A stretch of DNA of 60,467 nt, from NCBI GenBank assembly GCA_034431935.1, contig DAOUCU010000096.1, positions 1 to 60,467 on the forward strand, read 5' to 3'. A model generated the notes under the pieces. The model saw only the letters and a program-made list of their open reading frames with translations. It made no database searches and was not told the origin of the DNA. Shown here piece after piece: positions 13,777 to 31,562 of this stretch. The first letter of the stretch is position 1. Every line of letters begins with the position of its first letter. Made by a program: the position numbers and the translations under genes. This DNA is from Dehalococcoidia bacterium (GTDB taxonomy: Bacteria > Chloroflexota > Dehalococcoidia > GIF9 > JBFMDU01).

Positions 13777-14808
13777 ATGAACGACACTTTCCTGAAAGCA
13801 TGCCGCGGGGAGAAGGTACCTTACACTCCGGTCTGGATAATGAGGCAGGCCGGTCGGTTTCTGGCTGAGTACCGGAGGATACAGAAAAGAGCTGATTTTA
13901 TGACCATGTGCAAGACTCCGGAACTTGCGGCCGAGGTGACGCTACTGCCGGTAAATCTGCTGGGAGTCGATGCCGCGATATTCTTCTCGGATATTCTGAC
14001 CACGGTCGAGCCAATGGGTATGGAACTGAAGTTTTTTCCTGATAAAGGTCCATTGTTCGTGAATCCGATACGAACGGTGGCAGATATTGACCGGCTGGTG
14101 GTGTTCGACCCTGAAGACAAACTCGCCTTTGTCCCGCAGGCGGTGAAGATACTGGTGAAAGAACTCAAGAACAAGGTGCCGCTGATAGGGTTTGCCGGGG
14201 CGCCGTTCACTATGGCCGCGTTTATGGTCGAAGGCGCAGGTTCACCGAGGTACTTGATAACCAAGCGAATGTTGTTTGAAGAGCCAAAGGCATTCCACAA
14301 ATTGCTGGATAAGATAAGCAGGCTGACGACGGCATATATGAAGTCGCAAATAAACGCCGGGGCGTCGGCGGTAATGCTTTTCGACACCTGCGCCGGACAA
14401 CTCGGTCCGGCCGACTACACCGAGTTCAACCTGCCCTACGTTCAGAAGATAGTCAAGGCCTTGAAACCAACAGGCGTACCGGTAATTTACTACGCTAACG
14501 GATGCGGTGGCTTAGCGGAACTGGTTGGCAAATCAGGCGCCGATGTTATTGGTGTTGACTGGCGCATCTCTCTGGACCAGGCGGTTAAACGCCTCGGTAA
14601 GGGTATTTCGGTTCAGGGCAATCTTGAGCCGCAGGTGCTATTTGCCAGTAAAAAGAAGATTGAAGAGCGAGTTAAAGATGTCCTCGATGGTGGGTCCAGA
14701 GCCAGGGGTCATATTTTTAACCTTGGCGATGGCATACTGCCGGACACTCCGGTAGAGAACGTCAGGTTCTTAATCGATGCAGTCCATCGTCTCAGCCGGC
14801 GGAGGTAA
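13777..14808 (+). CDS. hemE: Uroporphyrinogen decarboxylase paralogue 2
   Basis: 343 aa. MNDTFLKACRGEKVPYTPVWIMRQAGRFLAEYRR is the canonical HemE N-terminus. FSDILT, GFAGAPFT and FNLGDGI present. Starts 13 nt after paralogue 1. Confidence 0.85.
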   Translation: MNDTFLKACRGEKVPYTPVWIMRQAGRFLAEYRRIQKRADFMTMCKTPELAAEVTLLPVNLLGVDAAIFFSDILTTVEPMGMELKFFPDKGPLFVNPIRTVADIDRLVVFDPEDKLAFVPQAVKILVKELKNKVPLIGFAGAPFTMAAFMVEGAGSPRYLITKRMLFEEPKAFHKLLDKISRLTTAYMKSQINAGASAVMLFDTCAGQLGPADYTEFNLPYVQKIVKALKPTGVPVIYYANGCGGLAELVGKSGADVIGVDWRISLDQAVKRLGKGISVQGNLEPQVLFASKKKIEERVKDVLDGGSRARGHIFNLGDGILPDTPVENVRFLIDAVHRLSRRR

Positions 14809-14842: not shown

Positions 14843-16072
14843 ATGACAATCAAAAAAATTTTCCCCATCATCGGGCTGGCCACCTTCGCCAGCATGCTGG
14901 GGATTGGAATAGTCGCGCCATTCATACCGCTGTATGCCAGGAGCCTTGGCGCCAGCGGGTTCATGATTGGCGTCGTCCTTGCCGGGTATTCTATCTCGAA
15001 AGCCGTGGTTATGCCGTTTATCGGGAATTATTCCGACCGTAAGGGCCGGAAGCTCTTTTTGATGGTGGGCCTGGGTTGCTACGCTCTGCTTTCTCTCGCC
15101 TATATTTGGGGGACTAATGTTTACCTGCTGGCTTTGATTCGCATTGTGCATGGTATGGCTGGCGGCATGGTCCTTCCGGTTGCCCGGGCGTGGATAGGTG
15201 ATGTTACGCCGGGAGGTGAAGAGGGGACCTGGCAGGGCTACTTCAATACGGTCTGGTTTGGTGGCATGGGATTCGGGCCTGTCATGGGTGGCATATTGAA
15301 CGATCACTTCGGCATGTCGGCCGCTTTTATCGCCATGGGGGGATTAAGCCTGTTGGCGTTTATTGGTGTTGTCGTATTCCTCCCTGAAGTGCAGCAATTG
15401 AAGTCCAGACAGCGTCCGAAGGTGTCATTTAAGAAGATGGGGGCCAGCGGTGTCTTTCGCGGCGTTTTTAGCCTTAAGGTGCTGGAGAGTATCGGACGGC
15501 GCAGTTTCTTCGCCTTTCTGCCTATCTTTGCTGGTGTCTATCTCGGTCTCAGTACCACTCAGATAGGACTTCTGATTACAGCAGACACCGTTGTCACCTC
15601 GCTTCTCCAGGCGCCGGCAGGTAAACTGAGCGATATAATCAACAGGCGAGCGCTTATTGTCATAGCCAGTTTCCTTGGTGGGTTATACATGGCTCTGACA
15701 CCCATGACAACTAATTTTTGGTGGTTGCTGAGCGTCATCGTAATCGCTGGCCTCAGGGCGGCGATAACCTCCGGGGGAACATCAGCGCTGATGGTCGAAG
15801 AAGGGCGCAAGTTTGGAATGGGCTCGACTATGGCGATGTTATCCATGGCGATATCCATCGGTGAGGGTATTGGGCCGCTGTTCGGTGGGGTTGTTGTCGA
15901 CCAGATTGGTGTTACCGGTAATTTCTATGTGTCCGCCGGGATGATGGTGCTGGCCGGAGCTATTTTTTTGTGGTTTACCCGCTCGAAGAAGCACGCTGTT
16001 CCGGCGGAAGCTGGCGCGATGGGAAAAGGAGGGCCGAAATCTGTTGTTATCGGGGAGGAGGATGTAGGCTAG
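14843..16072 (+). CDS. MFS transporter
   Basis: 409 aa, about 12 predicted TM segments. MFS loop motif GNYSDRKGRK between TM2 and TM3. Confidence 0.8.
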   Translation: MTIKKIFPIIGLATFASMLGIGIVAPFIPLYARSLGASGFMIGVVLAGYSISKAVVMPFIGNYSDRKGRKLFLMVGLGCYALLSLAYIWGTNVYLLALIRIVHGMAGGMVLPVARAWIGDVTPGGEEGTWQGYFNTVWFGGMGFGPVMGGILNDHFGMSAAFIAMGGLSLLAFIGVVVFLPEVQQLKSRQRPKVSFKKMGASGVFRGVFSLKVLESIGRRSFFAFLPIFAGVYLGLSTTQIGLLITADTVVTSLLQAPAGKLSDIINRRALIVIASFLGGLYMALTPMTTNFWWLLSVIVIAGLRAAITSGGTSALMVEEGRKFGMGSTMAMLSMAISIGEGIGPLFGGVVVDQIGVTGNFYVSAGMMVLAGAIFLWFTRSKKHAVPAEAGAMGKGGPKSVVIGEEDVG

Positions 16073-16079: not shown

Positions 16080-16862
16080 CTACTTTAACCTCGCCAGTGT
16101 CCAGTCGATAGATTCTGCCCAGATGTTCATGACTGCCTGGTTACTGCCCAGACCGCCCTCCGCACTTGCGGGCAGGCCGAGCTGGCTCTTATAGGTATTG
16201 GGGCCGTCGCCCATAATATCTCTGGTGATGTGTTCGCCGGATACAATCAGCATCGGGATGAACTTCACTCTCTTGAAGCCGGACTTCTTGATCTGGGCAA
16301 AGGCCGCTTCCGTTCCCGGCGGGCCTTCAAGAGTTACCAGAAAAACTCCCCGGTAGTGCTTGCGCACGTACTTTTCCATAAGCAGAAGCTGGGCATTGTA
16401 GCCCGGATGCTTAGCGTTGCCATGACTGCATAGTACCGTAGCCGTTTCACTATCACCGAATTTCGGCTCAAGTGCGCGAGCGACTCTTTCGATGTTGTCC
16501 GGGGGGGCCAGAAGTGGATAGCCGTACTCGATGTCCAGTCCCTCGGCAGGTGTAGTGAGGGCATCGCTGTACTCGCTTCCCGTCATGACCAGCAAGCTCT
16601 GGACTGAGGCCTTTGATACCCCTTCACGGCGGAGGTCGTCGTAGACTTCTTCCAGATTCTGTACCGGGACTTTTCGCTCGAACATTGTGTTGCGGCCGGA
16701 CTCTCTCAGCTTCTTAAGAATGAATTCTGAGGTAAGGGCCCACCTGACGTCGTGGGCCGGGTAGCGTTGGCGGACCAAAGTGTCAACGTCTTCGAGGTTC
16801 TTCTGACCTTCGGGTGAGGTGCTGCCGAAGATGGTGATAACGATGACCGGGGGTTTGTTCAT
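16080..16862 (-). CDS. cbiK: Sirohydrochlorin cobaltochelatase, CbiK type (class II chelatase)
   Basis: 260 aa. Colinear with CbiK: VIVITIFGSTSPEG..., CSHGNAKHPG (His site), VTLEG, and IPMLIVSGEHITRDIMGD (second His site). Starts 18 nt after the upstream TAXI-like gene. Confidence 0.8.
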   Translation of the reverse strand: MNKPPVIVITIFGSTSPEGQKNLEDVDTLVRQRYPAHDVRWALTSEFILKKLRESGRNTMFERKVPVQNLEEVYDDLRREGVSKASVQSLLVMTGSEYSDALTTPAEGLDIEYGYPLLAPPDNIERVARALEPKFGDSETATVLCSHGNAKHPGYNAQLLLMEKYVRKHYRGVFLVTLEGPPGTEAAFAQIKKSGFKRVKFIPMLIVSGEHITRDIMGDGPNTYKSQLGLPASAEGGLGSNQAVMNIWAESIDWTLARLK

Positions 16863-16880: not shown

Positions 16881-18035
16881 CTAATTAAGACTTTGAAAAA
16901 CACGGAACGGAGGCAGATCGAGCTTCTTTTTGTAGCTCTCCCAGAGTTCGACCCATGCTGGATTCTTCGGCTCGATGGAGATACCTTTTCTGTCAGCCAT
17001 GGCGATGGCTTCATCGTAAGCGGTGCAGTAGCGGCTGACGAGTTCGATATTGGCTTTCTGGCGGCGGTCGTGTGCCGATGTCCATAGCCCCAGTTCTTTC
17101 AAATACAAGACCAGTCCTTCGTGGCAGGGAACGAAAGTCCGTTTCAGTTCCTCGAGTAGAATATCGCGCCTCATGAACTCGTTCCAGGGATGGAGATTCT
17201 TGAACCGGTGGTAGTTCTCATCGAGCCACCTGGCCAGATGATAAACGAAGCTGGCATCGGTCTGCTCCCGGGTAAAGTATAAACTGGTACCGCATGTTCC
17301 CCAGTGCCCGATGGAGGACGGCACGCCGCTGAAGATAGGTCCAAAGGTTATCAGCGGCTTGACGGCCCAGAAGCGCTTGGCGCCTTCCGGGTCGGTCTCC
17401 GGATTAAGGTCTATCCAGCGGATGCCGTGGGGATTAAGCTCGGCTTTCTTGATTGACTCGGCAGTCGGGATGGCGAAGGCGATATCAGCTTTGCCTTGAA
17501 CGACCAGTTCCGCTTTGTGCGTGGCGTTTTTGGCTGGAACCCAGACGACATCTTCTTCCCCGATCCCGGCCCAGGCGAGCAGGGCATCGACTATTGGCTG
17601 GTCTTCGATATAGGTACGCATATCAGGCATCCGAATGCCGGGCTTGATATCGTAGATAGTCCGGACTGGCGAATCTCCTCTGACGAAGAAGCCGGAGTTG
17701 GAGCGTGACTGTACCCAGACGACTCTGAGGGGAAACGGTCCCGTTTCGCGGCCGGCGTAGCGCTGTTTGGCTTCGAGCATGCGGGCAAGTTCACCGGCAC
17801 CGCCAGCAGTGATATGGGCTTGGCCGTTGTGTATCGCTCGAAATCTGGTGACCGTATCGGGTGTGCCAATCACCGTTACTTTGATGCCGGTCTCGGCGGA
17901 GAGCAGGTTGGCCCAGGATTTAAGTATGTCTTCTCCCAGGCCGGTCCAGCCCATAGCTTTCAATTCTTCGGGCCATTTATAGTCATGTATGGATGTGATT
18001 TGTACCATGAATGCGTCCAAGCTCACAGAAGTCAA
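16881..18035 (-). CDS. TAXI-family TRAP solute-binding-protein homologue without signal peptide
   Basis: 384 aa. Paralogous along its full length to the lipoprotein SBP at 27101..28330 (RVVWVQSRSNSGFFVRGDSPVRTIYDIKPGIR..., PCHEGLVLYLKELGLW). The N-terminus MTSVSLDAFMVQITSIHDYKWPEE has no hydrophobic segment. An in-frame TGA lies 3 codons upstream of the first possible start. Confidence 0.75.
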   Translation of the reverse strand: MTSVSLDAFMVQITSIHDYKWPEELKAMGWTGLGEDILKSWANLLSAETGIKVTVIGTPDTVTRFRAIHNGQAHITAGGAGELARMLEAKQRYAGRETGPFPLRVVWVQSRSNSGFFVRGDSPVRTIYDIKPGIRMPDMRTYIEDQPIVDALLAWAGIGEEDVVWVPAKNATHKAELVVQGKADIAFAIPTAESIKKAELNPHGIRWIDLNPETDPEGAKRFWAVKPLITFGPIFSGVPSSIGHWGTCGTSLYFTREQTDASFVYHLARWLDENYHRFKNLHPWNEFMRRDILLEELKRTFVPCHEGLVLYLKELGLWTSAHDRRQKANIELVSRYCTAYDEAIAMADRKGISIEPKNPAWVELWESYKKKLDLPPFRVFQSLN

Positions 18036-18176: not shown

Positions 18177-18659
18177 CTAGTAGTCGCTTACCGTGATCCT
18201 GTAGACAACTGTCTTGGTTACCGTCTGGCCATCCTTGGTAGCGGTGACTTCAATGGTGCCATCACCCTTGGCTACCTGACGTGGAATCTTCCATTCCCAG
18301 ACAACTTTACCACTGGCATCGGCGGTCTTGGTCTTCTCGGTGGGGTAGGCACTGACGGTTCCGGTCTTGGGATTGGTCACTTTGATGGTGCAGACAGCTC
18401 CCGGGACAGTTGTTACTGTGACTTGAGTTGGAGCGTTAGCTTGGCCGTCAAGGACCGGTGTTACATCCAGCGGGAAGGCCCCGCCGCTTGGCGCGGCCGG
18501 TGCCGGTGACGCTGCTGGTGCCGGGGTCGGGCTCGCCGCCGGCTTGGGTGCTGGCGATGGTGATGCGGTTGGAGCTGCGGCTCCGCCGCAGGCTGAGGCG
18601 AGGACGAAGGAGAGAATCATGATTCCGATGATGGTTGCGACTCTAATCATCCTTGACAT
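18177..18659 (-). CDS. Secreted protein or lipoprotein with Pro/Ala-rich linker and a C-terminal beta-rich domain
   Basis: 160 aa. Signal peptide MSRMIRVATIIGIMILSFVLASAC, then a PAPKPAASPTPAPAASPAPA linker. The C-terminal domain is shared with the neighbouring gene (GKVVWEWKIPRQVAKGDGTIEVTAT). Confidence 0.65.
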   Translation of the reverse strand: MSRMIRVATIIGIMILSFVLASACGGAAAPTASPSPAPKPAASPTPAPAASPAPAAPSGGAFPLDVTPVLDGQANAPTQVTVTTVPGAVCTIKVTNPKTGTVSAYPTEKTKTADASGKVVWEWKIPRQVAKGDGTIEVTATKDGQTVTKTVVYRITVSDY

Positions 18660-18718: not shown

Positions 18719-19681
18719 TTAGCTCAGGGTGTACTTTGCCTCCTTCTTTACTGTCTGGTCCCCAAGAACTGCGGTAAACTCCATTGTGCCTTCGCCAGTC
18801 CGGGCCCTGTCGGTTATGGTCCACTCCCAAACTACCCTACCGTTAGCATCCGCTGGCTTATTGTCTTTGTCGTCAGGGTATCGGCTTACAGTGCCGGTGC
18901 CCGGTAAGGTGCTGAAGATACTGACCTTAGCACCCGGCAGAGTCTTGACTTCAACTCTTATGCGGCCGCCTGGCTTCGCCGGGCTGATTGAGACGATATC
19001 AAGGAACAGTTTTTCTGTGGTTGTCGATGTTGCCGGGGAAGGAGTGGGTGTCGGAGATGGTTTCGGCGGCGCAACTTTAAGCGGCCGGTCGCCCTGAGTT
19101 ACGTCAAGTTTCATAACCGCCTCTATTTTGGCGGTGCCTAAAGCGCTTACCTTAACAAACTTGTCCGCGTCGAAATCAAGAGTGAGGATAGTCTTCTGCC
19201 CCGCCTTGATCTCCCACGGTTGAACAACCTTTAGTTTATCACTGGGAAGGTCAGCGTTTATATCCTGGCCACGGAACGTTACCACACATTTAGCCACATC
19301 AAATCGTATCTGTGTGTATTTTCCCTCGGGGATGTCCTTCGTGCCAAGGAGGATTTCAGCACCCTCAATTGCTACTAAATCGAATGTCTGCTCTTTATCT
19401 ACCAGCGTTATCCATTTGTCGTCGGGGTCGGTGGCACTGTGTACCTGGATGTTATTGACTGTAACCAGGATCTTGGTGACGCCAGTTGGTGGCGCATCGG
19501 TTGCTCTGACCTCTGCGGTACCCGTAGCTGTTGGTGATGGTATTGGCTTGGGAGCCGGAGCTGGTGTTGAAGTTGGAGCCGGTGGTGACGCCGGTGCAGG
19601 CGCGCCGCAGGCAGCTAGAAACACGCCGGCTGCGAAGATGAGTACCAGCAATAGTAATGATGCTTTGCCCGGTGTTCTCAT
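18719..19681 (-). CDS. Lipoprotein with a DUF4382-like domain plus the same C-terminal domain as the 160-aa neighbour
   Basis: 320 aa. Lipobox FLAAC. DUF4382-like block (EVRATDAPP...ILVTVNNIQVHS...WITL...QTFDLVAIEG...IPEGKYTQIRFDV...LTLDFDADK). C-terminus GRVVWEWTITDRARTGEGTMEFTAV. Confidence 0.65.
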   Translation of the reverse strand: MRTPGKASLLLLVLIFAAGVFLAACGAPAPASPPAPTSTPAPAPKPIPSPTATGTAEVRATDAPPTGVTKILVTVNNIQVHSATDPDDKWITLVDKEQTFDLVAIEGAEILLGTKDIPEGKYTQIRFDVAKCVVTFRGQDINADLPSDKLKVVQPWEIKAGQKTILTLDFDADKFVKVSALGTAKIEAVMKLDVTQGDRPLKVAPPKPSPTPTPSPATSTTTEKLFLDIVSISPAKPGGRIRVEVKTLPGAKVSIFSTLPGTGTVSRYPDDKDNKPADANGRVVWEWTITDRARTGEGTMEFTAVLGDQTVKKEAKYTLS

Positions 19682-19735: not shown

Positions 19736-20617
19736 TTAACTGTGACAGCCGTGCTGATACTGTTCGGCAATCTCCCACAGTTGTTTCAGCAAATCGGGGC
19801 GTACATCCCGGATGTTGCGCCACTGGCCACGGGCGGCGTAGACATCTTCGGGCGTTATTTCATACTCGATTGCCTCCTCCACGGCTTCTCTGCCGGCCGA
19901 GGCCATCTTCTTGATGCCTTGGGAACCCACGATGACGCAGGTGCCGCCGCGGTACCACGTTCCAGCCTGGTCTCCGACTATATTAACGTAGGCATCAGCC
20001 ATCTGTGTTTCTATGCCGCGGCCCAGGTCCAGATAGCTGATTTCTGGTTGGTTTGGCCGCCAGGGGCCGGCGGAAGGCCGAACCTTAAGCCAGCAGCCGG
20101 CGATAGCTTGAGCGTAGGCGATCTCCGGGTGGCGGTTATCGAGGCATATCAGTACGCCGATACGCCCGAACTCGGTATCGAAAATGCCAATGCGTTCGCC
20201 GGCTTTGAAAAATGCCGCCTCGTCGTGAAGTTTGCCCGAAGTTCTGGCCAGCAGATGGACGAGGTAGAGCTTACGTGCGGAGCCGATGACGCCGTTGGGC
20301 CCCACCAGCGCCGCAGCGTTGTAAACGTCGCCCCGGGAGCGCTCGGCCATACCGACTATAACCAGACAGTGCTTACCTTTCAGCCTGGCAGAAATCTGTT
20401 CGGTCGCCGGTCCGGGTATAGTCTCCGCCTGGTCTTCATAGTTGACCTTGCCGGTAGTGTCATACCCGTTCAGGACGCATTCACCGAAGGCGATGAGGTT
20501 GGCTCCGGCGGCCAACCCGCGGTCGGTCCATTCCAGGACCTTCTTGAGGTTGGCTGCCTTGTTATTCAGTTCCGGGTGCATCTGTACCAGAAAGAGTTTC
20601 ACACAAGCCCCCCGCAA
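19736..20617 (-). CDS. Carbon-nitrogen hydrolase family protein (nitrilase/amidase superfamily)
   Basis: 293 aa. Candidate Glu-Lys-Cys triad in LIAFGECVLNGYD, ARKLYLVHL and GVLICLDNRHPE. The likely true start is the GTG at 20602 (MKLFLVQMHPEL). Confidence 0.8.
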   Translation of the reverse strand: MRGACVKLFLVQMHPELNNKAANLKKVLEWTDRGLAAGANLIAFGECVLNGYDTTGKVNYEDQAETIPGPATEQISARLKGKHCLVIVGMAERSRGDVYNAAALVGPNGVIGSARKLYLVHLLARTSGKLHDEAAFFKAGERIGIFDTEFGRIGVLICLDNRHPEIAYAQAIAGCWLKVRPSAGPWRPNQPEISYLDLGRGIETQMADAYVNIVGDQAGTWYRGGTCVIVGSQGIKKMASAGREAVEEAIEYEITPEDVYAARGQWRNIRDVRPDLLKQLWEIAEQYQHGCHS

Positions 20618-20635
20618 AAGTCCTATTAACCTTAA

Positions 20636-22933
20636 CTAGTCATTGCCGTTGAGGTCGTTGAAAAGCTTGAACGGCGGTAAACCCTTCTCTTTCTTGTACT
20701 CTTCCCACAGCTTGACCCACTCGGGATTATCAGCGACGACCGAAAGTCCCCTGCTGTCGGCGAGTCGGATTGCCTCCTGATAGGCTTCACAGTACCGTGT
20801 GACGAGCTCGAGGTTCTGTTTTTGACGCCGCTCGTGGGCTGGTGTCCACAGCTTGAGCTCCTTTAGGTATTTTATCAACCCTTCATGGCAGGGCACAAAC
20901 GTGTGCTTCAGTCCCTCGAGAAGTACCTCCCGGGTGCGGAAGCGGTTCTCGGGATGGCTGGAGGCGAAGCGGGCGTAGTTCTCATCAAACCACTTGGCCA
21001 GGTGATAGACAAGTTCCGCCGAAGTCCTTTCGGCGGTAAGCTCAAGGTTGATGCCCTCGGTGCACCAGACTCCGACCGCTGACTTGACGCCGCCCTCGGG
21101 GCAGATGCCGAAGTTGACCAGCGGGTCTACCTGCTTGAAGCGTCTGGCGCCTTCAGGGTCTTTCTCGGCATTAAGTTCAATCCATTTCAGGCCATAGGGG
21201 TTTTTCTCTGCCTCAGCCATGGTCGGTGAGGTTGGGAAGCTGAATCCGAGGTCGGCTCGCCCTTCGATGACGGCTTTATAGTTCTCGACCGAATTGTTGC
21301 AGTCGACCCAGACAATGTCCTTTTTATCCACCTGGGCCCAGGCGAGCAGGGCTTCGACAATGCGGGTGCTGGCAACGTAGGTCATGTTAACGATGCGGGT
21401 GCCCGGCTTGATGTCGTGCGGTGTCCTTATCCTGGAGTCGCCGCGCACAAAGAACCCGGCATTGCCCTTGGAGTGAGACCAGACCACCCTGACCTGGAAG
21501 GGACCGCCGTCGCGGACGGCGTAGCGGCGATCAGCCATTAACATCTGGCTGGTCTCGCTCGGTGCGCCCGCCGATAGGTCGAAGAGCCCGAGGTGGCCAA
21601 GCCAGCGGAAGCGGTTCACGGTATCGAATTCCGGTGCCACATGGATGCGCATCTGGGCGTCCTCTTCCAGGTACTTTGCCCAGCCCCTGGTGCAGTCGAC
21701 GCCGACACCGGCCCAGCTGACCACGGAAAGCTTGCTCGGCCAGACCCAGCCTTTGCTGCCCATCTTGTGTCCCGGCAGGTCATCTTCGAGGTTGCGGAAC
21801 ATCTTGATGCGGGGTATACCGGCATCCTTCTTATAATTCTCCCAGAGCTCAATCCACTCCGGGTTCTTGGGGTCAACCTTGATGTTCTTGCGGTCGGCCA
21901 TCTCGATAGCCGCCTGATTGGCCGCAACATAGCGGGAGATAAGATCCACATTCGTCCGATGGCGGCGTTCGTGTGCCGGTGTCCACAACTTTAGCTCTTT
22001 GAGGTAAGCGACCAGGCCGTCGTGACACGGGATAAACGTATGCTGTAGTTCCTGCATGAGGGTATCACGGGTCATGTACTCGTTCCAGGGATGGAGTTTG
22101 CGGTATTTCTCGTAGTTCTCGTCGAACCATTTGGCCAGGTTGTAGACGAACTCGGCATCGGTCTGCTCGCGGGTGCAGTAAAGGCTGATGCCAACCGTGC
22201 CCCAGTGCCCTATTGCCGAAGGCGGGCCGTTAAACATCGGGCCGAAGCTGACGAGCGGGTCGACCGTCTGAAATCTGGCCAGGCCCTCCGGGTCCTTTTC
22301 CGGATTGCAGTCAATCCATCGGATGCCGTAAGGGTTCTTTTCGGCGGCGAGGATGGATGGCGACGAAGGTACGGCGAAGGCGACATCGGCCTTGCCCTCA
22401 ACAACCAGTTGCGCTTTGTGGTCCGAGCTGGTGGCCGGCACCCAGACGACGTCCTTTTCCGGGTCGAGTTTGGCCCAGAGCAAGAAACCTTCCAGAATGC
22501 GCTGGCTGGCGAGGTAGCCTCTCATGTCTACCACGCGAACGCCTGGCTTCAGGTCATATATGTCTTTGATGGGCGAATCGCCCCGGACGAAGTAGCCTGA
22601 GTTCGACTTTGACTGGGCCCACACCGCCCGTATCTGGAAGGGACCGGTGTCGCGGGCGGCGTAGCGGCGATCGCCTTCAATCATCTGGCTGGTCTCGGTC
22701 GTGCCGCCGGCGGTAAGCTGGAAAAGGCCGAACCGGGTCCATTTGAAACGCTGAACTGTGTCCTGAGTGTGGGCAACGCGGCATTTCATGCCGGTATCAG
22801 CCTGAAGCACCTTGGTCCAACTGCCGAGTATTTGCTGGCCGAGACCGGTCCAGCCAACGACAGCGAACTCTTCAGGCCATTTGTAAGAGGACTTTGCCCT
22901 GGTTGCGTTTGCTTTTGCTGGTGTCATGTTCAT
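20636..22933 (-). CDS. Tandem double TAXI-family solute-binding-protein homologue (two complete modules in one ORF) without signal peptide
   Basis: 765 aa. Module 1 is about aa 15-385 and module 2 about aa 395-765. Each is colinear with the 384-aa and 409-aa paralogues. N-terminus MNMTPAKANATRAKSSYKWPEE is hydrophilic. Good SD (AAAGGAA) before the ATG. Junction: ...IKMFRNLEDDLPGHKMGSKGWVWPSKL... Confidence 0.75.
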   Translation of the reverse strand: MNMTPAKANATRAKSSYKWPEEFAVVGWTGLGQQILGSWTKVLQADTGMKCRVAHTQDTVQRFKWTRFGLFQLTAGGTTETSQMIEGDRRYAARDTGPFQIRAVWAQSKSNSGYFVRGDSPIKDIYDLKPGVRVVDMRGYLASQRILEGFLLWAKLDPEKDVVWVPATSSDHKAQLVVEGKADVAFAVPSSPSILAAEKNPYGIRWIDCNPEKDPEGLARFQTVDPLVSFGPMFNGPPSAIGHWGTVGISLYCTREQTDAEFVYNLAKWFDENYEKYRKLHPWNEYMTRDTLMQELQHTFIPCHDGLVAYLKELKLWTPAHERRHRTNVDLISRYVAANQAAIEMADRKNIKVDPKNPEWIELWENYKKDAGIPRIKMFRNLEDDLPGHKMGSKGWVWPSKLSVVSWAGVGVDCTRGWAKYLEEDAQMRIHVAPEFDTVNRFRWLGHLGLFDLSAGAPSETSQMLMADRRYAVRDGGPFQVRVVWSHSKGNAGFFVRGDSRIRTPHDIKPGTRIVNMTYVASTRIVEALLAWAQVDKKDIVWVDCNNSVENYKAVIEGRADLGFSFPTSPTMAEAEKNPYGLKWIELNAEKDPEGARRFKQVDPLVNFGICPEGGVKSAVGVWCTEGINLELTAERTSAELVYHLAKWFDENYARFASSHPENRFRTREVLLEGLKHTFVPCHEGLIKYLKELKLWTPAHERRQKQNLELVTRYCEAYQEAIRLADSRGLSVVADNPEWVKLWEEYKKEKGLPPFKLFNDLNGND

Positions 22934-23003: not shown

Positions 23004-24974
23004 CTATGTTGCTGTTCTTAACGCCGCCGCTCGTCTCATAAGCTCAGCAATCGCGATTACCACGGCCGCCATTCCGAAACCGATGAGCGTCGTTCTTGGC
23101 TCAGGGAGGGCGATTAGGAAACCGCCGGTGCCGATTACGGCTCTTTGCCACCACGAGAGCCGTCCGACCCGCACCATGTAACCTTCAATCGCCGAAGCCA
23201 GGATGAGGATGCCAAGTAAAGCGATAAACAGGTGGTAAATGATGTCGCCCGGCGTTCCCTGCATGACCAGCGCCGGTTGCAGTATGAAGAAGAAAGGCAT
23301 GAAGAAAAGTACAATAGCCTGTCGGAAGGCAATCCAGGCCGTTTTCATCGGGTTTGCGCCGCCGACGCTGGCGGCGATAAAGGCGCCGACGGCGACCGGC
23401 GGGGTGACATCGCCCAGTACCGAGTAGCATATAAGGAAAAGGTGACAGGCGACCAGAGGCACGTCTCCGATGGCCGCCACCGCCGGGGCCATGGTGACGG
23501 AGAGGAAGATGAATGCTGACGTATCCAGGCCGACCATACCCATCATAATGTTGAAGGCGGCGGCGATAGCCAGGATAAGGTAAAGGTTGTTAGCCCCGAG
23601 TCCGACAACCCAGGCGGTGATGGCGGCGGCAACGCCGGTCTTGAACAGACCGACCAGTATCAGGCTCATTGACAGAAAGATGCCGACACCGAAATTAATC
23701 AAGCTGGCGGTCTGGGAGAGCGCCTTCTCGATCTTCGCCCAGCTCATGCGTGTCCTCCTGCTGGTGAAAGTGAGCAGGAACATCAGGAAAGCGGCGTAGA
23801 TTGGCGTTATAGCGCCCCATCTGAAGTAAATGAGGCCAACGATAAGGAAGAGTATGGCCACTATATATATCCATCCGTCGCGCAGCACCGGTAGAACCGG
23901 CGGCACCTCTTCCTTTGGGAGTCCCCTCATTCCAATTTTTGCGGCGTGGGCATCTATCTGCATTAGCAGGCAGGTGAAGTACAATACCGCGGGTATCACG
24001 GCGGCAATCATGATGGTGGTGTACTCATAGCCGCCGATGATGGCGGCGAGAAATGCCAGACCGCCCATGATTGGCGGCATGATGGGACCTCCACAGGAAC
24101 TGCAGGCTTCGACTGCGGCGGCACGTTCCGGAGAGAAGCCCATCCTTTTCATAGCGGGGATGGTATAAGTACCGGTACCGACAATATTGGCGATGATGGA
24201 ACCGCTGAGTGTGCCAAATAAAGCGCTGGAAAGCACTGATACCTTGGCCGGGCCGCCGCGGAAGCGGCCAAGTATGGACGTTGCCAGCTTGAGGAAGAAA
24301 TCAGCGGCGCCAAGACCGCTGATGACACCGGCAAACAGGTAGAAGCCGAGAATGAGACTGCCGAACATGGCCGCAGGCAGTCCCAGCATGCCGTTGGCCC
24401 CATAGGCGAAATCACCAACGAGTTCCGAGAAGGTGATGGGGTAGCCGGCCAGAACGCCGGGGAGCCTGTCAGCGAACATGGGATAGACTATGGAAATGCC
24501 AAGGAGAGTCAGATAGCCCCATCCGCCGATTCTCCGGCCGGCTTCAAGGCCGAGCCCCAGTACGATGACCGCGGCGGCAAAGGTGATGAAGTTCGGCGGC
24601 GGCTCCCACATTCTTAGTGATATTGGCTCGGAATTGATGAGAAAGAAAAGCACACAGGCCAGGAGCACCGAAGCCATTACATAGTCGTACCATGGCGGTG
24701 CCCGCTTTTTCTGTTTCTGGGTTGCTGGCAGTCCCATAAAGACGTTGAATACCATAACGGTGTAGAGAAGGTAGAAGTAGAAGGTCCCGCTGAGCACATT
24801 ACCGAAAATAGCGATGCCCTTGAAGTGGATGATGAACAGGGCCATGGCAATCATAGTTGAAACGATGAACCAGAGCTTGATGGGCTTTGGCATGAGGTGG
24901 TAACGGCCGATGGCGCCGGTTGGCTCTATGGTCTTTGTAACGGTGCTCTCAGGCACTCTTACAGGGCCTCCCAT
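23004..24974 (-). CDS. TRAP transporter fused permease subunit (4TM/12TM DctQM-type fusion typical of TAXI systems), paralogue 1
   Basis: 656 aa, highly hydrophobic and multi-TM. Colinear with the adjacent 654-aa paralogue (RYxLMPKP, FRGGPAKVSxLSSA, GSxIANIVGTGxxTIPAMK, EACSSxGGxIMPPIMG). Confidence 0.85.
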   Translation of the reverse strand: MGGPVRVPESTVTKTIEPTGAIGRYHLMPKPIKLWFIVSTMIAMALFIIHFKGIAIFGNVLSGTFYFYLLYTVMVFNVFMGLPATQKQKKRAPPWYDYVMASVLLACVLFFLINSEPISLRMWEPPPNFITFAAAVIVLGLGLEAGRRIGGWGYLTLLGISIVYPMFADRLPGVLAGYPITFSELVGDFAYGANGMLGLPAAMFGSLILGFYLFAGVISGLGAADFFLKLATSILGRFRGGPAKVSVLSSALFGTLSGSIIANIVGTGTYTIPAMKRMGFSPERAAAVEACSSCGGPIMPPIMGGLAFLAAIIGGYEYTTIMIAAVIPAVLYFTCLLMQIDAHAAKIGMRGLPKEEVPPVLPVLRDGWIYIVAILFLIVGLIYFRWGAITPIYAAFLMFLLTFTSRRTRMSWAKIEKALSQTASLINFGVGIFLSMSLILVGLFKTGVAAAITAWVVGLGANNLYLILAIAAAFNIMMGMVGLDTSAFIFLSVTMAPAVAAIGDVPLVACHLFLICYSVLGDVTPPVAVGAFIAASVGGANPMKTAWIAFRQAIVLFFMPFFFILQPALVMQGTPGDIIYHLFIALLGILILASAIEGYMVRVGRLSWWQRAVIGTGGFLIALPEPRTTLIGFGMAAVVIAIAELMRRAAALRTAT

Positions 24975-25043: not shown

Positions 25044-27008
25044 TTAACCGCCGCCAGCTATCGCAGGATTTTCTTTGCCCTTGCGGCCCTCCATCATTTT
25101 CCTGATCAGGACGAGTACGATGCCGATAACTGACAGAATCCCTCCGGCAAACGTTGTGAAAAGCTCGGGAAAAGCAATCAGAAAGCCTCCAGATATGAAG
25201 AATGCGCGCTCCCATGGTTTAATAGAGCCTAGACCGGTGAAGTAGCCTCCCGTACCGCAGACCATGATGAATATCCCGACCATGGCCATGATTAGATGGT
25301 AGAAGATGCTCCACGGTGTACCAACCATGGCTAGTGCCGGCTGGAAAACAAAGAAGAAGGGCACCAGCAGTAGCGGGACGAGCATGCGGGAGGCTGTGTA
25401 GGAAGTTTTTATCGGATTGGCACCGGCGATGCTGGCGGCAACATAGGCGTCAATGGCGACCGGTGGTGTTACGGTGCCGTATCCTGCCTGATAGATTATG
25501 AAAAGGAGGATAACGTAAATAGGGATATCCAGGACTTTGGCTATAGCCGGGGCGGCGGTGACCGATAAGAAGAGAAAAGCGGCGCGCTGGAGACCGACCA
25601 TGCCCATTACAACAGAGAAGCCGGTGGCAATAAAAAGGACGAAGTAAGCATTGCCCGCACCCAGCGAGACAATCCAGCTGGTAATAGCGGCGGCGACGCC
25701 GGTCTTGAACAGGCCGACCAGGATAAAGCCCATGGAGAAGGTGACGCCGACGGCGAAGTTTATCAGCCCGGCCATATGGGCAAGGGCCTCCTCCATTTTT
25801 TTCCACGTCGGGCGCATCTTCTTGTTGGTGAAGGCGAGAAGTATCGCCAAAATAGTGGCGTAAACGGGTACAATGGCCCCCCACCGCATATAGATCAACC
25901 CGAAGGCGAGAAAGGCGATGACAACGATATAAATCCAGCCTTCTTTGAGGGTAGGAATCAGCGGGGGACATTCGGAGCGGGTTAGTCCCTTCAGTCCGGC
26001 TTTGGCGGCGTAGGCGTCAATTTGTATCTGCATTGCAAATACATACAGGAATGCGGGTATCACTGCGGCAATGATAAACTGAGCATACTCTACGCCAGCG
26101 ATGACGCAGGCCAGAAATACCATGCCGCCCATTATCGGCGGCATGGTATCGCCGATGTTAGAGGAGCAGGCCTCGATGGCGGCGGCGTATTCAGGTGGGT
26201 AGCCAGTTTTCTTCATCGCCGGAATGGTAAAAGAGCCAGTGCCGACAATATTGGCGATGGTACTGCCGCTCATGGTGCCGAAGAAGGCACTGGCCAGTGA
26301 TGAGACCTTGGCAGGCCCTCCGCGGAACTGGCCGACCACTGAAGTGGCCAGCTTGACAAAGAAGTCGCCCCCGCCCATGCCCATGACTACGCCGGCGAAT
26401 AGATAGAAGCCCAGGACAAGTTCGGCAATCATCATCGCCGGGATGCCGAGAAGGCCGTTGGCTCCGAAAGCGAAATCTGAGAAAATATCGTTGAATGACT
26501 GCTTGACGCCCCAGAAAATGCCGGGCATGTAGTCGGCGACCAGCGGGTAAACGATCGAGACCAGTAATAGAGTGAGATACCCCCAACCGCCGATGCGCCG
26601 TCCGGCTTCCAGGGAAATGAGGCCTATTATGACCGCCAGCACCAGCTGGGGCCAGCCGGGCGCCGGTGTCCACATCCTCATGGCGATGATGCCGGAGTTG
26701 AAAGTGAAATAGATGAGAATAGTCACCAGAATGGTTGCAAGTACGTAGTCGTACCAGGGAGGCGGTCTGTGTCTGGCATAATGGTGGACAGCCAACCCCA
26801 TGAAGACGTTGAAACCGAGACAGGAGAACAGGATGTAGTAGTAAGGAACACCGCTGAGCACGTAGCCGAAGATAGGGATGCCCATGTAATGGAAACAGAA
26901 TAGCCCGATGGCAATAACCGTAGTCGATAAGAAGATGGCCTTGACCGGTTTGGGCATCAGGTCGTAGCGGGAAAGGGCACCTTTTCTTTGCTTGGGGGCC
27001 TCAGACAT
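25044..27008 (-). CDS. TRAP transporter fused permease subunit (4TM/12TM fusion), paralogue 2
   Basis: 654 aa. Same conserved blocks as paralogue 1 (QFRGGPAKVSSLASAFFGTMSGSTIANIVGTGSFTIPAMKKTGY). Confidence 0.85.
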   Translation of the reverse strand: MSEAPKQRKGALSRYDLMPKPVKAIFLSTTVIAIGLFCFHYMGIPIFGYVLSGVPYYYILFSCLGFNVFMGLAVHHYARHRPPPWYDYVLATILVTILIYFTFNSGIIAMRMWTPAPGWPQLVLAVIIGLISLEAGRRIGGWGYLTLLLVSIVYPLVADYMPGIFWGVKQSFNDIFSDFAFGANGLLGIPAMMIAELVLGFYLFAGVVMGMGGGDFFVKLATSVVGQFRGGPAKVSSLASAFFGTMSGSTIANIVGTGSFTIPAMKKTGYPPEYAAAIEACSSNIGDTMPPIMGGMVFLACVIAGVEYAQFIIAAVIPAFLYVFAMQIQIDAYAAKAGLKGLTRSECPPLIPTLKEGWIYIVVIAFLAFGLIYMRWGAIVPVYATILAILLAFTNKKMRPTWKKMEEALAHMAGLINFAVGVTFSMGFILVGLFKTGVAAAITSWIVSLGAGNAYFVLFIATGFSVVMGMVGLQRAAFLFLSVTAAPAIAKVLDIPIYVILLFIIYQAGYGTVTPPVAIDAYVAASIAGANPIKTSYTASRMLVPLLLVPFFFVFQPALAMVGTPWSIFYHLIMAMVGIFIMVCGTGGYFTGLGSIKPWERAFFISGGFLIAFPELFTTFAGGILSVIGIVLVLIRKMMEGRKGKENPAIAGGG

Positions 27009-27100: not shown

Positions 27101-28330
27101 TCAGTAGTTATCAACGTAGTCCACAGTCAAACTCTGATGAAGGCCAATCTTGGGCAGGTGCTTCTCTTTCTGGTAGTTCTGCCAGAAGTTCATCCAGGCC
27201 TCATTGGTCGGGTCGATTTTGATTCCCTTAGAATCGGCCAGCTTGATTGCCTCAGGGTAGGCATTACACCAGGCCGTGACCGCGGCGATGTTGGTGGCCT
27301 GTCTCTTATCATGGGCGGGCGTCCAGAGGTTCTTTTCCTTGAGATACCTGATCAAGCCATCGTGCACCGGGATCATCGACCTTTCCAGAGCATTCATAAG
27401 CGCATCAATACTCATGTGCTCATTGGTGTCGAAAGCATTCTTGTACCGCTCGTAGTTCGTGTCCAGCCATTTGGCAAAATTATAGACAAGCTCGGGGTCA
27501 GACTTATCAAGGGTGACTTCAAGCGTGGCACCTGAGGTGCCCCATACGCCGCGGGCTTCGGGAACGCCGCTCAGAATTGGACCGAAGGCGTAAGCCGGGT
27601 CATTGGCGCGGAATCTGGCCGCGCCCTCCGGGTCTTTGTCCGAGTTTAGATCAAGGAATCGAATGCCACCTGGTGCAGCTGCCGCTTCGTATATCGCCGG
27701 TGAGGTCGGGAAGCCGAACATGATGTCGGCCCGGCCTTCGGCTACCGCCCTGGCGCATCCGTCATAGCTACCGGTATTTACCCATACTATCTGGTCATGG
27801 GGCAATTGAATCCAGTCCGCTATGGCCTTGGGCACTTTAAGTACCGTCGGCTGCATTGACCACACTGCCCAGCGTATACCCGGCTTGATGTCATAAATTG
27901 TCTTAATCGGAGAGTCGCCGCGGACAAAAATGCCGGAGTTGGAAATGGCGTGTATCCATACCACCCGCATCTGCCAGGGTCCGCCATCCCTTACCGCATG
28001 ACCTTCGGTGGCCTCAATAACGTTGCCCAGTTCACGCTTGCCGCCTTTGACCAGGAAGGCCTTGCCGGTCTGGACACTCATAAAACGCTGGATGCTGTTT
28101 TCCTCGGGAACAACCCTTATGGACATTCCCGTGTCCTTTTCCATGATTGTTGTCCAGCTCACATACTTGGCCAGGCCGGAGCCTCCCCCCGAAGATATTA
28201 TGAGAGTTCGTGGCCACTGCCAGCCGCTGGCTGTAGTCTGGGTTCCCCCGCCACAACCGCTGAAGAGCAGGGCAAGCACCACCACAGAAACGAATGCTAC
28301 CAGTACCAGATTTGCCTGTCTTCCTTTCAT
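27101..28330 (-). CDS. TAXI-family TRAP transporter solute-binding lipoprotein
   Basis: Start placed at ATG 28330 (MKGRQANLVLVAFVSVVVLALLFSGCGGG), preceded by AGGAGGAGG. Has a signal peptide and lipobox Cys. The mature part is a TAXI-type SBP (IPVHDGLIRYLKEKNLW near the end). Confidence 0.8.
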   Translation of the reverse strand: MKGRQANLVLVAFVSVVVLALLFSGCGGGTQTTASGWQWPRTLIISSGGGSGLAKYVSWTTIMEKDTGMSIRVVPEENSIQRFMSVQTGKAFLVKGGKRELGNVIEATEGHAVRDGGPWQMRVVWIHAISNSGIFVRGDSPIKTIYDIKPGIRWAVWSMQPTVLKVPKAIADWIQLPHDQIVWVNTGSYDGCARAVAEGRADIMFGFPTSPAIYEAAAAPGGIRFLDLNSDKDPEGAARFRANDPAYAFGPILSGVPEARGVWGTSGATLEVTLDKSDPELVYNFAKWLDTNYERYKNAFDTNEHMSIDALMNALERSMIPVHDGLIRYLKEKNLWTPAHDKRQATNIAAVTAWCNAYPEAIKLADSKGIKIDPTNEAWMNFWQNYQKEKHLPKIGLHQSLTVDYVDNY

Positions 28331-28682
28331 CTGACCTCCTCCTGAGTCTGTCCTTAACATTTTAAACGTTCCGGGCGGCTTGCAGGTAAAAGTACAACCG
28401 TCAGGTATAGCCATCCCCAGGTGCGAAATACTCCAGCGCGGCAGGTCAATTCTGGTGGGAACAAATGCGGGAGGTTGGCTGGAGAAACTTCACCTTGCCA
28501 CAAGACCCATTATAGTAGCGGCGGGCGGAATTGGGAATCCACCATTTCATTCATTATTAGGACGCAAAAGACGCCGATTGTGTAGTCCTTATGGTTTATG
28601 GTGGATGAACGGTGCAAACTACGTGGATTCGGGCGTCCGGTCGGTTCTGTGGTACCATGACCGCCAACTGCGGAGGTGAGCA

Positions 28683-30647: not shown

Positions 30648-30653
30648 GCCGAA

Positions 30654-31562
30654 TTATAGCATCCTGGATAACGGGTGGTCGGGTATTTTTGGCCGGTGAC
30701 CGGTGAAGCGGCCCCCGTATCCGCTCAACGCGTCAGCGGTGGCGACGGCCGGGAAGAGCCATGGTGCCAGCGCCAGCGATCCGTAGAAGATGAAATCGGC
30801 TCCGTTGGCTACCAGGACAGTCATAATTGCGGCCGCTACCGAGCGGTAGGCGTGCTCATCCCAACCGGCACCTCTGTCCTGGCGCCATGTATAGAGCGCG
30901 TTTGCCGGGGCGCAACCGGCGGGATACCCCAGCTTCTCCTTGATTTCACGCACAGCAATCGCCGCCGGGGCAATGCTGGCAATGTCCAGCACCCCGGTAT
31001 CGACGATGAAATTCTCAATACCGGCACGTGCCGCCACCGGCAGAAGCGTCTCGGTGAGATAGTTAATCCTGGAAGCTGGCCGTATGTTCCTGGCAGTGAA
31101 GGACAGCAAGACTGCGTTCCTGATTCCGCACTCACGCAGGGTGTCAATCTCGGCTTCGGTATGGTCGTCCGCAATGGCATTGTAGATCAGCCTTGGCACG
31201 ATCTCGGTGCCAGCGAAGTGGCGGAGGGCCTCCATCCGGACCGTTTGTGACGGCGAATCCAGGAGCAACGGGGCACTGGTACGCGCCGCCACAAATTCAA
31301 GATGAGTTATCAGTGACTTCGAGGTCTCTCCGATGACATCGATGCAGTACGGCAGATTCGTGGCCGTGGCGGATTCTGCCTGGCGCTCCAGCAGTGCCTC
31401 CGCCATGTCCCGGTCAAATTCTCCGCTGGCAGCGTCGCGTAAGAGGCTCTGACCGGCGAAGAAAATACTGCCTACCATTACGGTGGGGTATTCACCGGGT
31501 TGCCCGCCGAAATTGACACCGCCGACATTGACGACGCGCTGTTCTTTACTGAAGCTGAACAT
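30654..31562 (-). CDS. MtrH-family methyltransferase (methyl-corrinoid:pterin methyltransferase)
   Basis: 302 aa. MFSFSKEQRVVNVGGVNFGGQPGEYPTVMVGSIFF... and LPYCIDVIGETSKSL are colinear with methanogen MtrH. Confidence 0.85.
   Translation of the reverse strand: MFSFSKEQRVVNVGGVNFGGQPGEYPTVMVGSIFFAGQSLLRDAASGEFDRDMAEALLERQAESATATNLPYCIDVIGETSKSLITHLEFVAARTSAPLLLDSPSQTVRMEALRHFAGTEIVPRLIYNAIADDHTEAEIDTLRECGIRNAVLLSFTARNIRPASRINYLTETLLPVAARAGIENFIVDTGVLDIASIAPAAIAVREIKEKLGYPAGCAPANALYTWRQDRGAGWDEHAYRSVAAAIMTVLVANGADFIFYGSLALAPWLFPAVATADALSGYGGRFTGHRPKIPDHPLSRML

Follow-up and report, generated by a model that had tools for sequence, protein, structure and literature searches.

The tandem TAXI gene and its origin

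The window considered here comprises positions 1 to 60,467 (forward strand) of contig DAOUCU010000096.1 of a Dehalococcoidia bacterium (assembly GCA_034431935.1). At positions 20636..22933 it carries a gene for a protein, hereafter di-TAXI, in which two solute-binding modules of the TAXI type of tripartite ATP-independent periplasmic (TRAP) transport systems are joined in one chain. The original prediction had recognized the tandem two-module open reading frame (ORF) and had overlooked that the gene lies on the minus strand. The features of the gene are given below, where alpha' and beta' denote the two neighbouring genes of which the ORF is a fusion.

20636..22933, minus strand: di-TAXI ORF (fused alpha'-beta'), 765 aa, or 763 aa counted from the second ATG
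21770..22933, minus strand: N module, alpha' type, residues 1-388, folded core ~22-375
21734..21808, minus strand: inter-module linker, residues 376-400, with the former stop/start junction and the plausible relic Met391
20639..21769, minus strand: C module, beta type, residues 389-765

The ORF begins with an ATG codon and a ribosome-binding site, AGGAA, lies 4-5 nt 5' of it. The 763-aa product that starts at the second ATG (start detail at 22927..22933) is the form found in public gene calls, and in the orthologue at L009 (related loci are cited by handles of this kind) Leu replaces the first Met. A stop codon lies upstream of the listed start, each ORF in the list being opened at the first start after a stop; a longer N-terminus or a hidden leader is therefore excluded.

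PF16868 (NMT1_3; 67.7 bits, cut-off 27, E 1.7e-18) and TIGR02122 (TRAP_TAXI; 97.1 bits, cut-off 84.35) each matched di-TAXI in two stretches, in agreement with the prediction of one ORF with two complete TAXI modules. Single modules of the same subfamily scored 55.7 and 72.6 bits against TIGR02122, under the NCBIfam cut-off, indicating that this subfamily is divergent. The N and C halves were 52.6% identical over 369 aa. The 30 identities that had been counted by hand in a stretch of 48 residues proved exact, the two blocks beginning at residues 90 and 470, and the junction that had been quoted starts at residue 376.

According to the AlphaFold2 model, di-TAXI comprises two confident modules (mean predicted local distance difference test score (pLDDT) of 90.2), each with the two-lobed fold of class II binding proteins. 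The pLDDT dropped to 54-63 in the linker and was below 50 only at residues 1-13 and 389-394. At its C-terminus, each module had an additional hairpin of helices (319-348 and 358-370), ~70 aa long. The top Foldseek matches of each module were all TAXI solute-binding proteins (SBPs; 4ddd, 9ibo/8s4j and 8u79/1us4), with template modelling (TM) scores of 0.70-0.80 and 16-19% sequence identity.

The possibility of an assembly-derived fusion, raised with the original prediction, was excluded by intact orthologues in independent assemblies and by a ratio of nonsynonymous to synonymous substitution rates (dN/dS) of ~0.05. More specifically, the fused ORF was intact at L009 (98% identity, JGI metagenome), at L008 (protein P0001; 93% identity, NCBI Chloroflexota MAG227) and in protein P0002 (73% identity), and it recurred in at least 12 distinct sequences at 73-98% identity. 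The junctions of the fused orthologues differed in sequence (EDDLPGHKMGSKGWVWP, EDDTRGHKMGSKGWVWP and EDDSAGFKDRRGRWQWP). The 90%-identity cluster of di-TAXI contained 11 distinct 763-aa sequences from independent NCBI, JGI, ENA and Logan assemblies, and a scan of genome contigs with the single protein returned only the near-identical MAG227 locus. Measured against the 93% orthologue, the N and C halves had dN/dS values of 0.054 and 0.053, respectively, at a synonymous rate (dS) of ~0.78. Together, these data give good support to the conclusion that di-TAXI is a genuine, selectively maintained fusion and not an artefact.

In eight related loci (L001, L003, L004, L011, L012, L015, L016 and L019), alpha and beta are separate but adjacent genes, and at most 7 nt lie between the alpha stop and the beta start (for example, ...NLEED*MVTKKN... 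in L016, in which the asterisk is the stop). The ORFs of the window, L009, L008 and P0002 read through exactly at the stop/ATG point of the unfused loci. The N half shared 62% identity with alpha' of L011 and L015, where this gene comes after the TRAP permease gene, and 50-55% with the TAXI part of flavodoxin-TAXI proteins. The C half was 63-64% identical to the product (371-373 aa) of the gene directly 3' of the flavodoxin-TAXI gene in L001, L003 and L004. The separate adjacent genes at eight loci, the identities of each half and the bootstrapped clades described below thus provide good support for di-TAXI having arisen as a Rosetta-stone fusion of the neighbouring genes alpha' and beta'. The original prediction had the tandem modules right and had missed this origin, a fusion of neighbouring paralogous genes and not a simple internal duplication. 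It had also taken a Met of the second module for a former initiator. Because the unfused orthologues have a stop and an ATG exactly at this junction, Met391 is plausibly the relic initiator of beta'; its equivalent has been lost in P0002. The fusion is rare and restricted to one lineage; among the 50%-identity clusters of the best 150 matches, from a set of 1.84 billion representative proteins, only one was a two-module cluster.

The leaderless N-terminus and a family of relatives

Where exported relatives have the conserved [WFY]x[WF]P motif, the mature domain begins with it; in di-TAXI, this motif lies only 16 residues from the N-terminus. The segment before WxWP had a maximum 12-residue Kyte-Doolittle hydropathy of -0.77 and contained no lipobox, twin-arginine (RR) motif or hydrophobic stretch. 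In the exported paralogue encoded at 27101..28330, the maximum hydropathy was 3.37 and a lipobox, FSGC, was present. The signal peptide or lipoprotein anchor of TRAP SBPs was thus absent from di-TAXI by hydropathy and motif check, and the leaderless N-terminus of the original prediction was borne out, as it was by the upstream stop. This check for export signals, including that of twin-arginine translocation (Tat), found none in di-TAXI. Nor was a twin-arginine motif present in the leader of the exported paralogue. Hitch-hiking through Tat with this paralogue was considered and is unlikely because the paralogue has a Sec/lipoprotein leader without such a motif.

The orthologues of di-TAXI likewise had no leader. 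Its nearest single-module relatives carry an N-terminal flavodoxin domain with an intact FMN phosphate loop, or an N-terminal HemD-like domain, and such a domain is incompatible with Sec or lipoprotein export. A hydrophobic leader was found in 0 of 111 further family members obtained in a profile search; by contrast, all exported relatives had a leader and most had a lipobox in addition. The upstream stop, the leaderless orthologues, the fused relatives and the leaderless family together lend good support to the predicted cytoplasmic location of di-TAXI. Because this location fails the one that defines extracytoplasmic SBPs, di-TAXI would not be classed as a functioning member of them, and delivery of solute to the periplasmic face of a permease would be incompatible with it.

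We considered whether di-TAXI might be exported by a non-classical route, or whether the fused ORF might be an assembly or sequencing artefact or a decaying pseudogene. These possibilities are extremely improbable. The upstream stop, the lack of both a twin-arginine motif and a hydrophobic stretch, and the existence of relatives fused to flavodoxin argue against export, and the recurrence of the intact ORF in independent assemblies under a dN/dS of 0.05 argues against an artefact.

The two halves of di-TAXI fall within a clade of leaderless Chloroflexota/Dehalococcoidia TAXI-like proteins that has apparently not been described before, with modules of alpha, beta and gamma types. The clade comprises more than 110 clusters at 90% identity. 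A profile built from 14 leaderless modules retrieved 237 proteins at E <= 1e-20, and the 111 new ones were examined: 50 were alpha-like, 48 beta-like and 13 gamma-like. Three members found in this way carry a separate N-terminal domain of the size seen in the flavodoxin fusions, and the named members came from Dehalococcoidia, Dehalococcoidales or Chloroflexota metagenome-assembled genomes (MAGs). Approximately 38 "N-truncated" representatives that start inside the first strand, and are either leaderless or have a mis-called start, were excluded from these counts. In a bootstrapped neighbour-joining tree, the leaderless modules formed one clade (99/100) nested among exported lipoprotein TAXI proteins. 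Support was 100/100 for the beta clade, 79/100 for the gamma clade and 89/100 for beta and gamma together. Support for alpha as a single clade was 24/100, and alpha is accordingly regarded as a grade. The parent of the leaderless clade is the exported SBP encoded in the same operons, with which the clade still travels.

Among single-module proteins, those nearest to di-TAXI (50-55% identity) are ~530 aa long, have a short-chain flavodoxin at the N-terminus and lack a leader. Their flavodoxin domain has an intact S/T-x-T-G-x-T phosphate loop and matched the flavodoxin model with an E of 5e-16. In one relative of 649 aa, also without a leader, a HemD-like (HEM4) domain takes the place of the flavodoxin. 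Lipoproteins of 420-560 aa with the same ~70-aa C-terminal helical extension are more distantly related (30-45% identity). The window itself encodes a third leaderless paralogue, of 384 aa, which was 59% identical to the N half of di-TAXI and sister to the fused N modules in 98/100 bootstraps. This paralogue had been overlooked in the original prediction, as had the whole family with its flavodoxin, chelatase and HemE partners. Separately, a Dehalococcoidia MAG (L027) encodes several leaderless TAXI paralogues, with at least four distinct clusters bearing its locus-tag prefix and further copies at the same loci. Next to the flavodoxin-TAXI/CbiK cluster, L027 also encodes (1346..4373) a tandem of three PNPOx-like FMN-binding proteins together with a Flavodoxin_2/FMN_red protein.

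The motifs DTVNRF, ETSQM and SKSNSG are found in the leaderless family and are missing from most exported members. Conserved cleft motifs specific to the clade are present; the candidate Cys, that of a clade-enriched PCHEGL motif, occurs in only 50 of the 111 members. A catalytic or cofactor-attachment role for this residue was rejected because only these members have it. Positions mapped to the ligand contacts of VcGluP (PMC11574862), through alignments at ~19% identity that are indicative only, were conserved per type and mostly occupied by small residues (T59, G77, S108, S110 and A187). By type, alpha has G77 and Q107; beta has A77, H107, G110 and F188; and gamma has F77 and Y or W at 107. 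Because these positions are conserved within types and distinct between them, neither half appears degenerate and both clefts look functional. The clefts may be larger than those of glutamate binders.

The gene array and its recurrent partners

In the window, di-TAXI is encoded within a minus-strand co-directional array with gaps of 18-141 nt, which runs from the exported SBP through two permeases, di-TAXI, a CN-hydrolase, two lipoproteins and the 384-aa paralogue to a CbiK-like chelatase. The array is convergent with a plus-strand unit comprising two HemE genes and a gene for a transporter of the major facilitator superfamily (MFS). The features are as follows.

27101..28330, minus strand: exported TAXI binding protein of the same family, a lipoprotein with a leader and an FSGC lipobox, encoded by the array's first gene
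25044..27008, minus strand: fused TRAP permease 1, 654 aa (TIGR02123, 404 bits)
23004..24974, minus strand: fused TRAP permease 2, 656 aa (TIGR02123, 458 bits), 70 nt upstream of di-TAXI
19736..20617, minus strand: CN-hydrolase of the amidase/nitrilase superfamily (PF00795), 18 nt 3' of di-TAXI
18719..19681, minus strand: lipoprotein of 320 aa with DUF4382 and a C-terminal Ig-like module
18177..18659, minus strand: lipoprotein of 160 aa with the same C-terminal Ig-like module
16881..18035, minus strand: third leaderless TAXI-like paralogue (TTG start, 384 aa), a duplicate of the N module specific to this lineage
16080..16862, minus strand: CbiK-like class II chelatase (PF06180), cytoplasmic, 18 nt 3' of the 384-aa paralogue
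14843..16072, plus strand: MFS transporter, convergent with the CbiK gene, 46% identical to the L001 MFS transporter encoded between beta and CbiK
12723..13763 and 13777..14808, plus strand: two tandem HemE (uroporphyrinogen decarboxylase; TIGR01464, 379 and 406 bits, cut-off 303)
9790..12471, plus strand: LuxR-type response regulator and PAS histidine kinase, upstream of HemE

The exported paralogue was 42-43% identical to each half of di-TAXI. Its longest ORF (27101..28414, 437 aa) is over-extended; with the start at MKGRQ (28330), the leader is that of a normal lipoprotein. The two permeases were 55% identical to each other and share one exported SBP, and most related loci have a single permease. 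Di-TAXI is thus encoded with a fused (DctQM-type) TRAP permease, in the same order as in L011 and L015. Overall, the window, L008, L009, L011 and L015 share the order exported SBP, permease, alpha', beta', which L017 shows in part.

The position of alpha'-beta' directly 3' of a permease gene in at least five loci, together with the two permease paralogues and single exported SBP of the window, might be taken to mean that the leaderless pair binds the TRAP permease at its cytoplasmic face, where the pair would receive substrate directly, gate the transporter or permit it to run outward. The outward mode is suggested by the role of the binding protein in setting the direction of transport: in the work of Mulligan and co-workers on SiaPQM, the SBP reportedly imposes directionality. 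We nevertheless consider docking very unlikely. Flavodoxin-alpha/beta pairs also lie beside CbiK/MFS/FAD genes, far from a permease (L001 and L027), the HEM4 and flavodoxin fusions indicate metabolism, and we know of no precedent. We prefer an intracellular receptor for the imported substrate.

Haem and tetrapyrrole enzyme genes were the most frequent neighbours of leaderless TAXI genes. A CbiK-like gene lies beside them in the window lineage, L001, L003, L004, L006, L020, L027 and L028, and at L024 a CbiX gene follows the permease gene, making nine lineages with a CbiK/CbiX-type chelatase. By our estimate, which assumes 1-2 copies per few-Mb genome, the chance of a chelatase gene in a 20-kb stretch is ~1%; against this expectation, nine lineages constitute a strong association. 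The His/Glu/His residues of the CbiK-like protein, which we take to be the metal-site residues, align with those of the CbiK structures 1qgo and 2xvx. The best solved match of the protein was the haem-binding protein FetB (9b86).

Other enzymes of the same metabolism recur around the family. At L015, HemE (373 bits, equivalog cut-off 303) is encoded directly after beta on the same strand, and a partial HemE copy lies beside CbiK in L020. The two HemE copies of the window were 56% identical to each other. The second has a canonical WxMRQAGR motif (PVWIMRQAGR), as does HemE of L015, and the first has the variant PVWILRQSGR. At L007, a stand-alone HEM4 gene is followed by a HEM4-TAXI fusion. At L024 (6854..12137), a locus with an exported relative only, the order is AhbD-like radical SAM protein, TAXI SBP, TRAP permease and small CbiX. 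The AhbD-like protein scored 457 bits, under the equivalog cut-off of 500, and this was by far the best match for that protein; the order hints that the exported branch may also be tied to tetrapyrrole enzymes. In an anaerobic pathway of the coproporphyrin type (PMC13564367), the steps that lead from uroporphyrinogen to haem b are covered by class II chelatase, HemE, HemD and AhbD-like proteins. A carboxylated tetrapyrrole is favoured as the ligand because these four tetrapyrrole-specific enzyme families surround the clade.

CN-hydrolase orthologues follow beta or CbiK in L003, L010, L012, L013 and L028, and MFS transporters and MarR or LuxR-type regulators recur around the family loci. Homologues of the LuxR/PAS-kinase regulators of the window flank the L003 and L004 clusters. 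Alternatively, the system might import and process another carboxylate, such as an aromatic acid, a dicarboxylate mono-amide or a chelate of metal and carboxylate; di-TAXI would then bind this compound inside the cell, and the neighbours of tetrapyrrole type would have diverged to other functions. Consistent with this, the nearest solved relative of the CN-hydrolase is the Nit2 omega-amidase; several loci encode MarR regulators, efflux-type MFS transporters, an aromatic-hydroxylase-like FAD protein, family III CoA-transferases and aldehyde:ferredoxin oxidoreductase; the CbiK-like protein scored only 69 bits against the CbiK equivalog model (cut-off 400); and small amino or keto acids are what characterised TAXI proteins bind (PMC11574862). 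By contrast, class II chelatase, HemE (at equivalog level), HemD and AhbD-like proteins recur in independent lineages, and the CbiK-like protein has kept His/Glu/His. We know of no established non-tetrapyrrole function of class II chelatases. A ligand outside the tetrapyrroles thus seems unlikely to us, and we retain a carboxylated tetrapyrrole as the favoured one. An assignment of the FAD protein, FAD436, to CgoX/CgoN was also considered and rejected, since its similarity is to geranylgeranyl reductases and aromatic hydroxylases and since CgoN is YtpQ.

Redox modules form a further recurrent element. A flavodoxin is fused to alpha in at least eight clusters. In L003, L004 and L028, flavodoxin-alpha precedes beta and gamma; in L001, it precedes only beta. 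The CbiK-like proteins of L004 (16097..17284) and L028 (12923..14221) also carry an N-terminal flavodoxin, and a small 2x[4Fe-4S] ferredoxin gene comes next. A CbiK-like protein of 403 aa in L027 (6294..7505) has the same kind of N-terminus. To our knowledge, no redox-module architecture of this kind has been described on a class II chelatase. The presence of flavodoxin and ferredoxin on alpha and the chelatase suggests that low-potential electrons are involved.

These modules raise the possibility that alpha/beta(/gamma) are not passive carriers and constitute subunits of a cytoplasmic redox enzyme on a binding-protein fold, to or from which flavodoxin and ferredoxin would supply or remove electrons. 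Such an enzyme might be an oxygen-independent porphyrinogen dehydrogenase, analogous to HemG/CgoN, or a porphyrin reductase working in reverse; alternatively, the modules might be the substrate-holding part of a reductive (de)chelatase with the CbiK-like protein. In addition to the intact-loop flavodoxin on alpha and the flavodoxin on the CbiK-like proteins with their adjoining ferredoxin, the 45-60% identity still found among paralogues and the three clade motifs agree with an enzymatic role, as does the occurrence of binding-protein-fold enzymes, Thi5 being among the Foldseek matches. A coproporphyrinogen oxidase would fit the slot X in the series HemE, X, chelatase, AhbD (pathway in PMC13564367). 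However, the flavodoxin domain is wholly missing in the window lineage, the PCHEGL Cys is not a universal catalytic residue, no catalytic motif was identified in the family, and the exported paralogue and permease in the same operon would go unexplained. We therefore regard a redox enzyme as a doubtful alternative to an intracellular receptor.

A candidate intracellular receptor

We infer that di-TAXI acts as a single-chain alpha-beta intracellular receptor for a polycarboxylate imported by the TRAP system, probably a carboxylated tetrapyrrole, which would be passed to neighbouring enzymes; this proposal has, in our estimation, an even chance of being correct. In the relatives, alpha-type and beta-type genes always occur as a pair. 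Their constant pairing, their tight spacing and the natural fusion indicate that alpha and beta act together, most likely as a heterodimer, and the unfused genes would be translationally coupled. In di-TAXI, a flexible linker of ~25 residues joins alpha' and beta' in one chain. The adjacent TAXI-TRAP importer would bring the polycarboxylate into the cell, where di-TAXI would take it up as a receptor or carrier and present it to the CbiK/CbiX-type class II chelatase, HemE, the CN-hydrolase and the flavodoxin/ferredoxin electron donors. The candidate ligands are uro- or coproporphyrin(ogen), coprohaem or a related carboxylated tetrapyrrole, and the whole system would be a route of tetrapyrrole salvage or processing. 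An intracellular receptor is the simplest mechanism because the clade descends from the operon's exported SBP and still travels with it. The originally suggested role in carrying, scaffolding or processing what the transporter imports is consistent with the conserved gene order.

Several observations weigh against this proposal. The flavodoxin fused to alpha suggests chemistry rather than mere carriage. Leaderless paralogues without a nearby chelatase occur at L025, L026 and L029/L030. FAD436, the MFS transporter, the MarR regulators and the CN-hydrolase, whose nearest solved relative is Nit2 omega-amidase, lie outside the textbook haem route. The predicted TM score (pTM) of the AlphaFold2 model was 0.58, so that the orientation of the modules and the alpha-beta interface are undefined. 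No riboswitch, for cobalamin or otherwise, was found in the window and 10 related loci at Rfam gathering thresholds, the scan returning only two tRNAs and an unrelated T-box. Finally, the known TAXI ligands, glutamate and glutamine, are small (PMC11574862), and a tetrapyrrole would be unprecedented.

A bolder version of the proposal combines import and chemistry. Dehalococcoidia/Chloroflexota would have a tetrapyrrole machine not recognised before, in which the TAXI-TRAP system would import a free or metallated porphyrin. Its binding protein would have been duplicated to give an intracellular alpha/beta/gamma receptor complex, which would, with the flavodoxin/ferredoxin-fed CbiK-type enzyme, perform new chemistry: reductive removal or insertion of the metal, or oxygen-independent interconversion of porphyrinogen and porphyrin. 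The products would feed HemE and AhbD, and di-TAXI would be the single-chain alpha-beta core. We consider this version speculative and on balance improbable.

By sequence and fold, each half of di-TAXI is a member of the TAXI superfamily. VcGluP (VC0430), TtGluBP of T. thermophilus and the Ehrlichia protein 4ddd share with each half of di-TAXI the fold (TM 0.70-0.80), the NMT1_3/TIGR02122 match and an adjoining fused TRAP permease gene. Unlike these proteins, to which it is 16-19% identical, di-TAXI has a ~70-aa hairpin per module and two modules per chain and lacks a leader or lipid anchor; the glutamate-contacting residues of VcGluP are replaced by small residues. The three-domain dimeric lipoprotein BP0403 and the TAXI-GltS fusions indicate that TAXI domains are recombinable and able to act as dimers; in contrast to di-TAXI, these proteins are exported or membrane-fused, have one TAXI domain, bind glutamate and are paired with GltS, and none is cytoplasmic or tandem (PMC12344293). 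The SBD1-SBD2 pair of GlnPQ (6h30) and the transferrins also have two binding-protein-fold modules per chain, with a weak whole-chain match (TM 0.2-0.3). However, they are extracytoplasmic and belong to other SBP classes, and the GlnPQ domains are exported and fused to the translocator, whereas di-TAXI has neither a leader nor a fused membrane domain.

The exported SBP ThiY and its cytoplasmic homologue THI5 (NMT1) act on chemically related ligands. They resemble the exported TAXI protein and di-TAXI in pairing an exported SBP with an intracellular homologue in the broad NMT1-like superfamily, and both structures were among the Foldseek matches. THI5 differs in being a homodimeric suicide enzyme without an alpha/beta/gamma set, flavodoxin fusion or TRAP linkage. 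Functional analogies for the possible action of a TAXI-like module next to HemE and a chelatase, whether flavodoxin is present or not, are provided by HemC, whose binding-protein-like fold holds polycarboxylated pyrroles, GUN4, the porphyrin presenter of Mg-chelatase, HemG, a flavodoxin-type protoporphyrinogen dehydrogenase, and CgoN (PMC10965808). None of the four is related to di-TAXI in sequence, CgoN being the unrelated YtpQ, and the analogy comes from gene neighbourhood alone. Conceptually, the closest precedents are binding-protein folds recruited to the cytoplasm, as in THI5 compared with ThiY, and presenters of porphyrin of the GUN4 kind. The original prediction had left room for leaderless di-domain TAXI proteins having been characterised already; our literature search found no description of cytoplasmic or tandem TAXI proteins, of TAXI proteins in Dehalococcoidia or of a link between TRAP and porphyrins.

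TRAP/TAXI binding proteins are usually viewed as strictly extracytoplasmic, single-module receptors. The leaderless family is a sizeable intracellular clade with fixed alpha/beta(/gamma) sets and with fusions to flavodoxin, HemD or each other, still accompanied by the exported parent and permease, and it provides a concrete, testable case of a transporter receptor recruited for the intracellular handling of substrate. If the tetrapyrrole link is true, it bears on how strictly anaerobic Chloroflexota obtain or process haem-type cofactors and on whether TRAP systems move tetrapyrroles; import of a porphyrin would make this the first TRAP system for tetrapyrroles. The natural fusion is also a ready-made single-chain construct for expression and ligand screening.

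The Ig-like module (~80 aa) of the two window lipoproteins also occurs in small lipoproteins of L001 (17219..17461) and L015 (229..705), at the C-termini of exported TAXI SBPs (P0013, P0015, P0030, and those of L003, L004 and L006, of 543, 577 and 549 aa, respectively) and on an SBP_bac_5 protein of L007. This module is perhaps an accessory domain that recurs on the extracellular side of such transport systems. A 295-aa ORF antisense to the CN-hydrolase gene (19742..20629, plus strand) has no family match and is almost certainly a shadow ORF. A scan of the window for promoters and terminators was not above shuffled expectation; it gave only weak hints of a promoter-like site 5' of the exported SBP gene and of a hairpin between the genes for the 160-aa lipoprotein and the 384-aa paralogue.

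Just upstream of the exported SBP gene, at 29007..33342 on the minus strand, is a complete operon for corrinoid-dependent methyl transfer. It encodes an MtgC-like corrinoid protein, a very divergent URO-D-like methyltransferase (381 aa), an MtrH/MtgA-like methyl-corrinoid:pterin methyltransferase and a RACo reductive activase. A link to this operon was considered, and we treat the arrangement as lineage-specific, the adjacency being kept only in the 98% relative L009. Two adjacent tRNA genes (33739..33896, minus strand) lie between this operon and a divergent EntS-like MFS gene (34033..35268).

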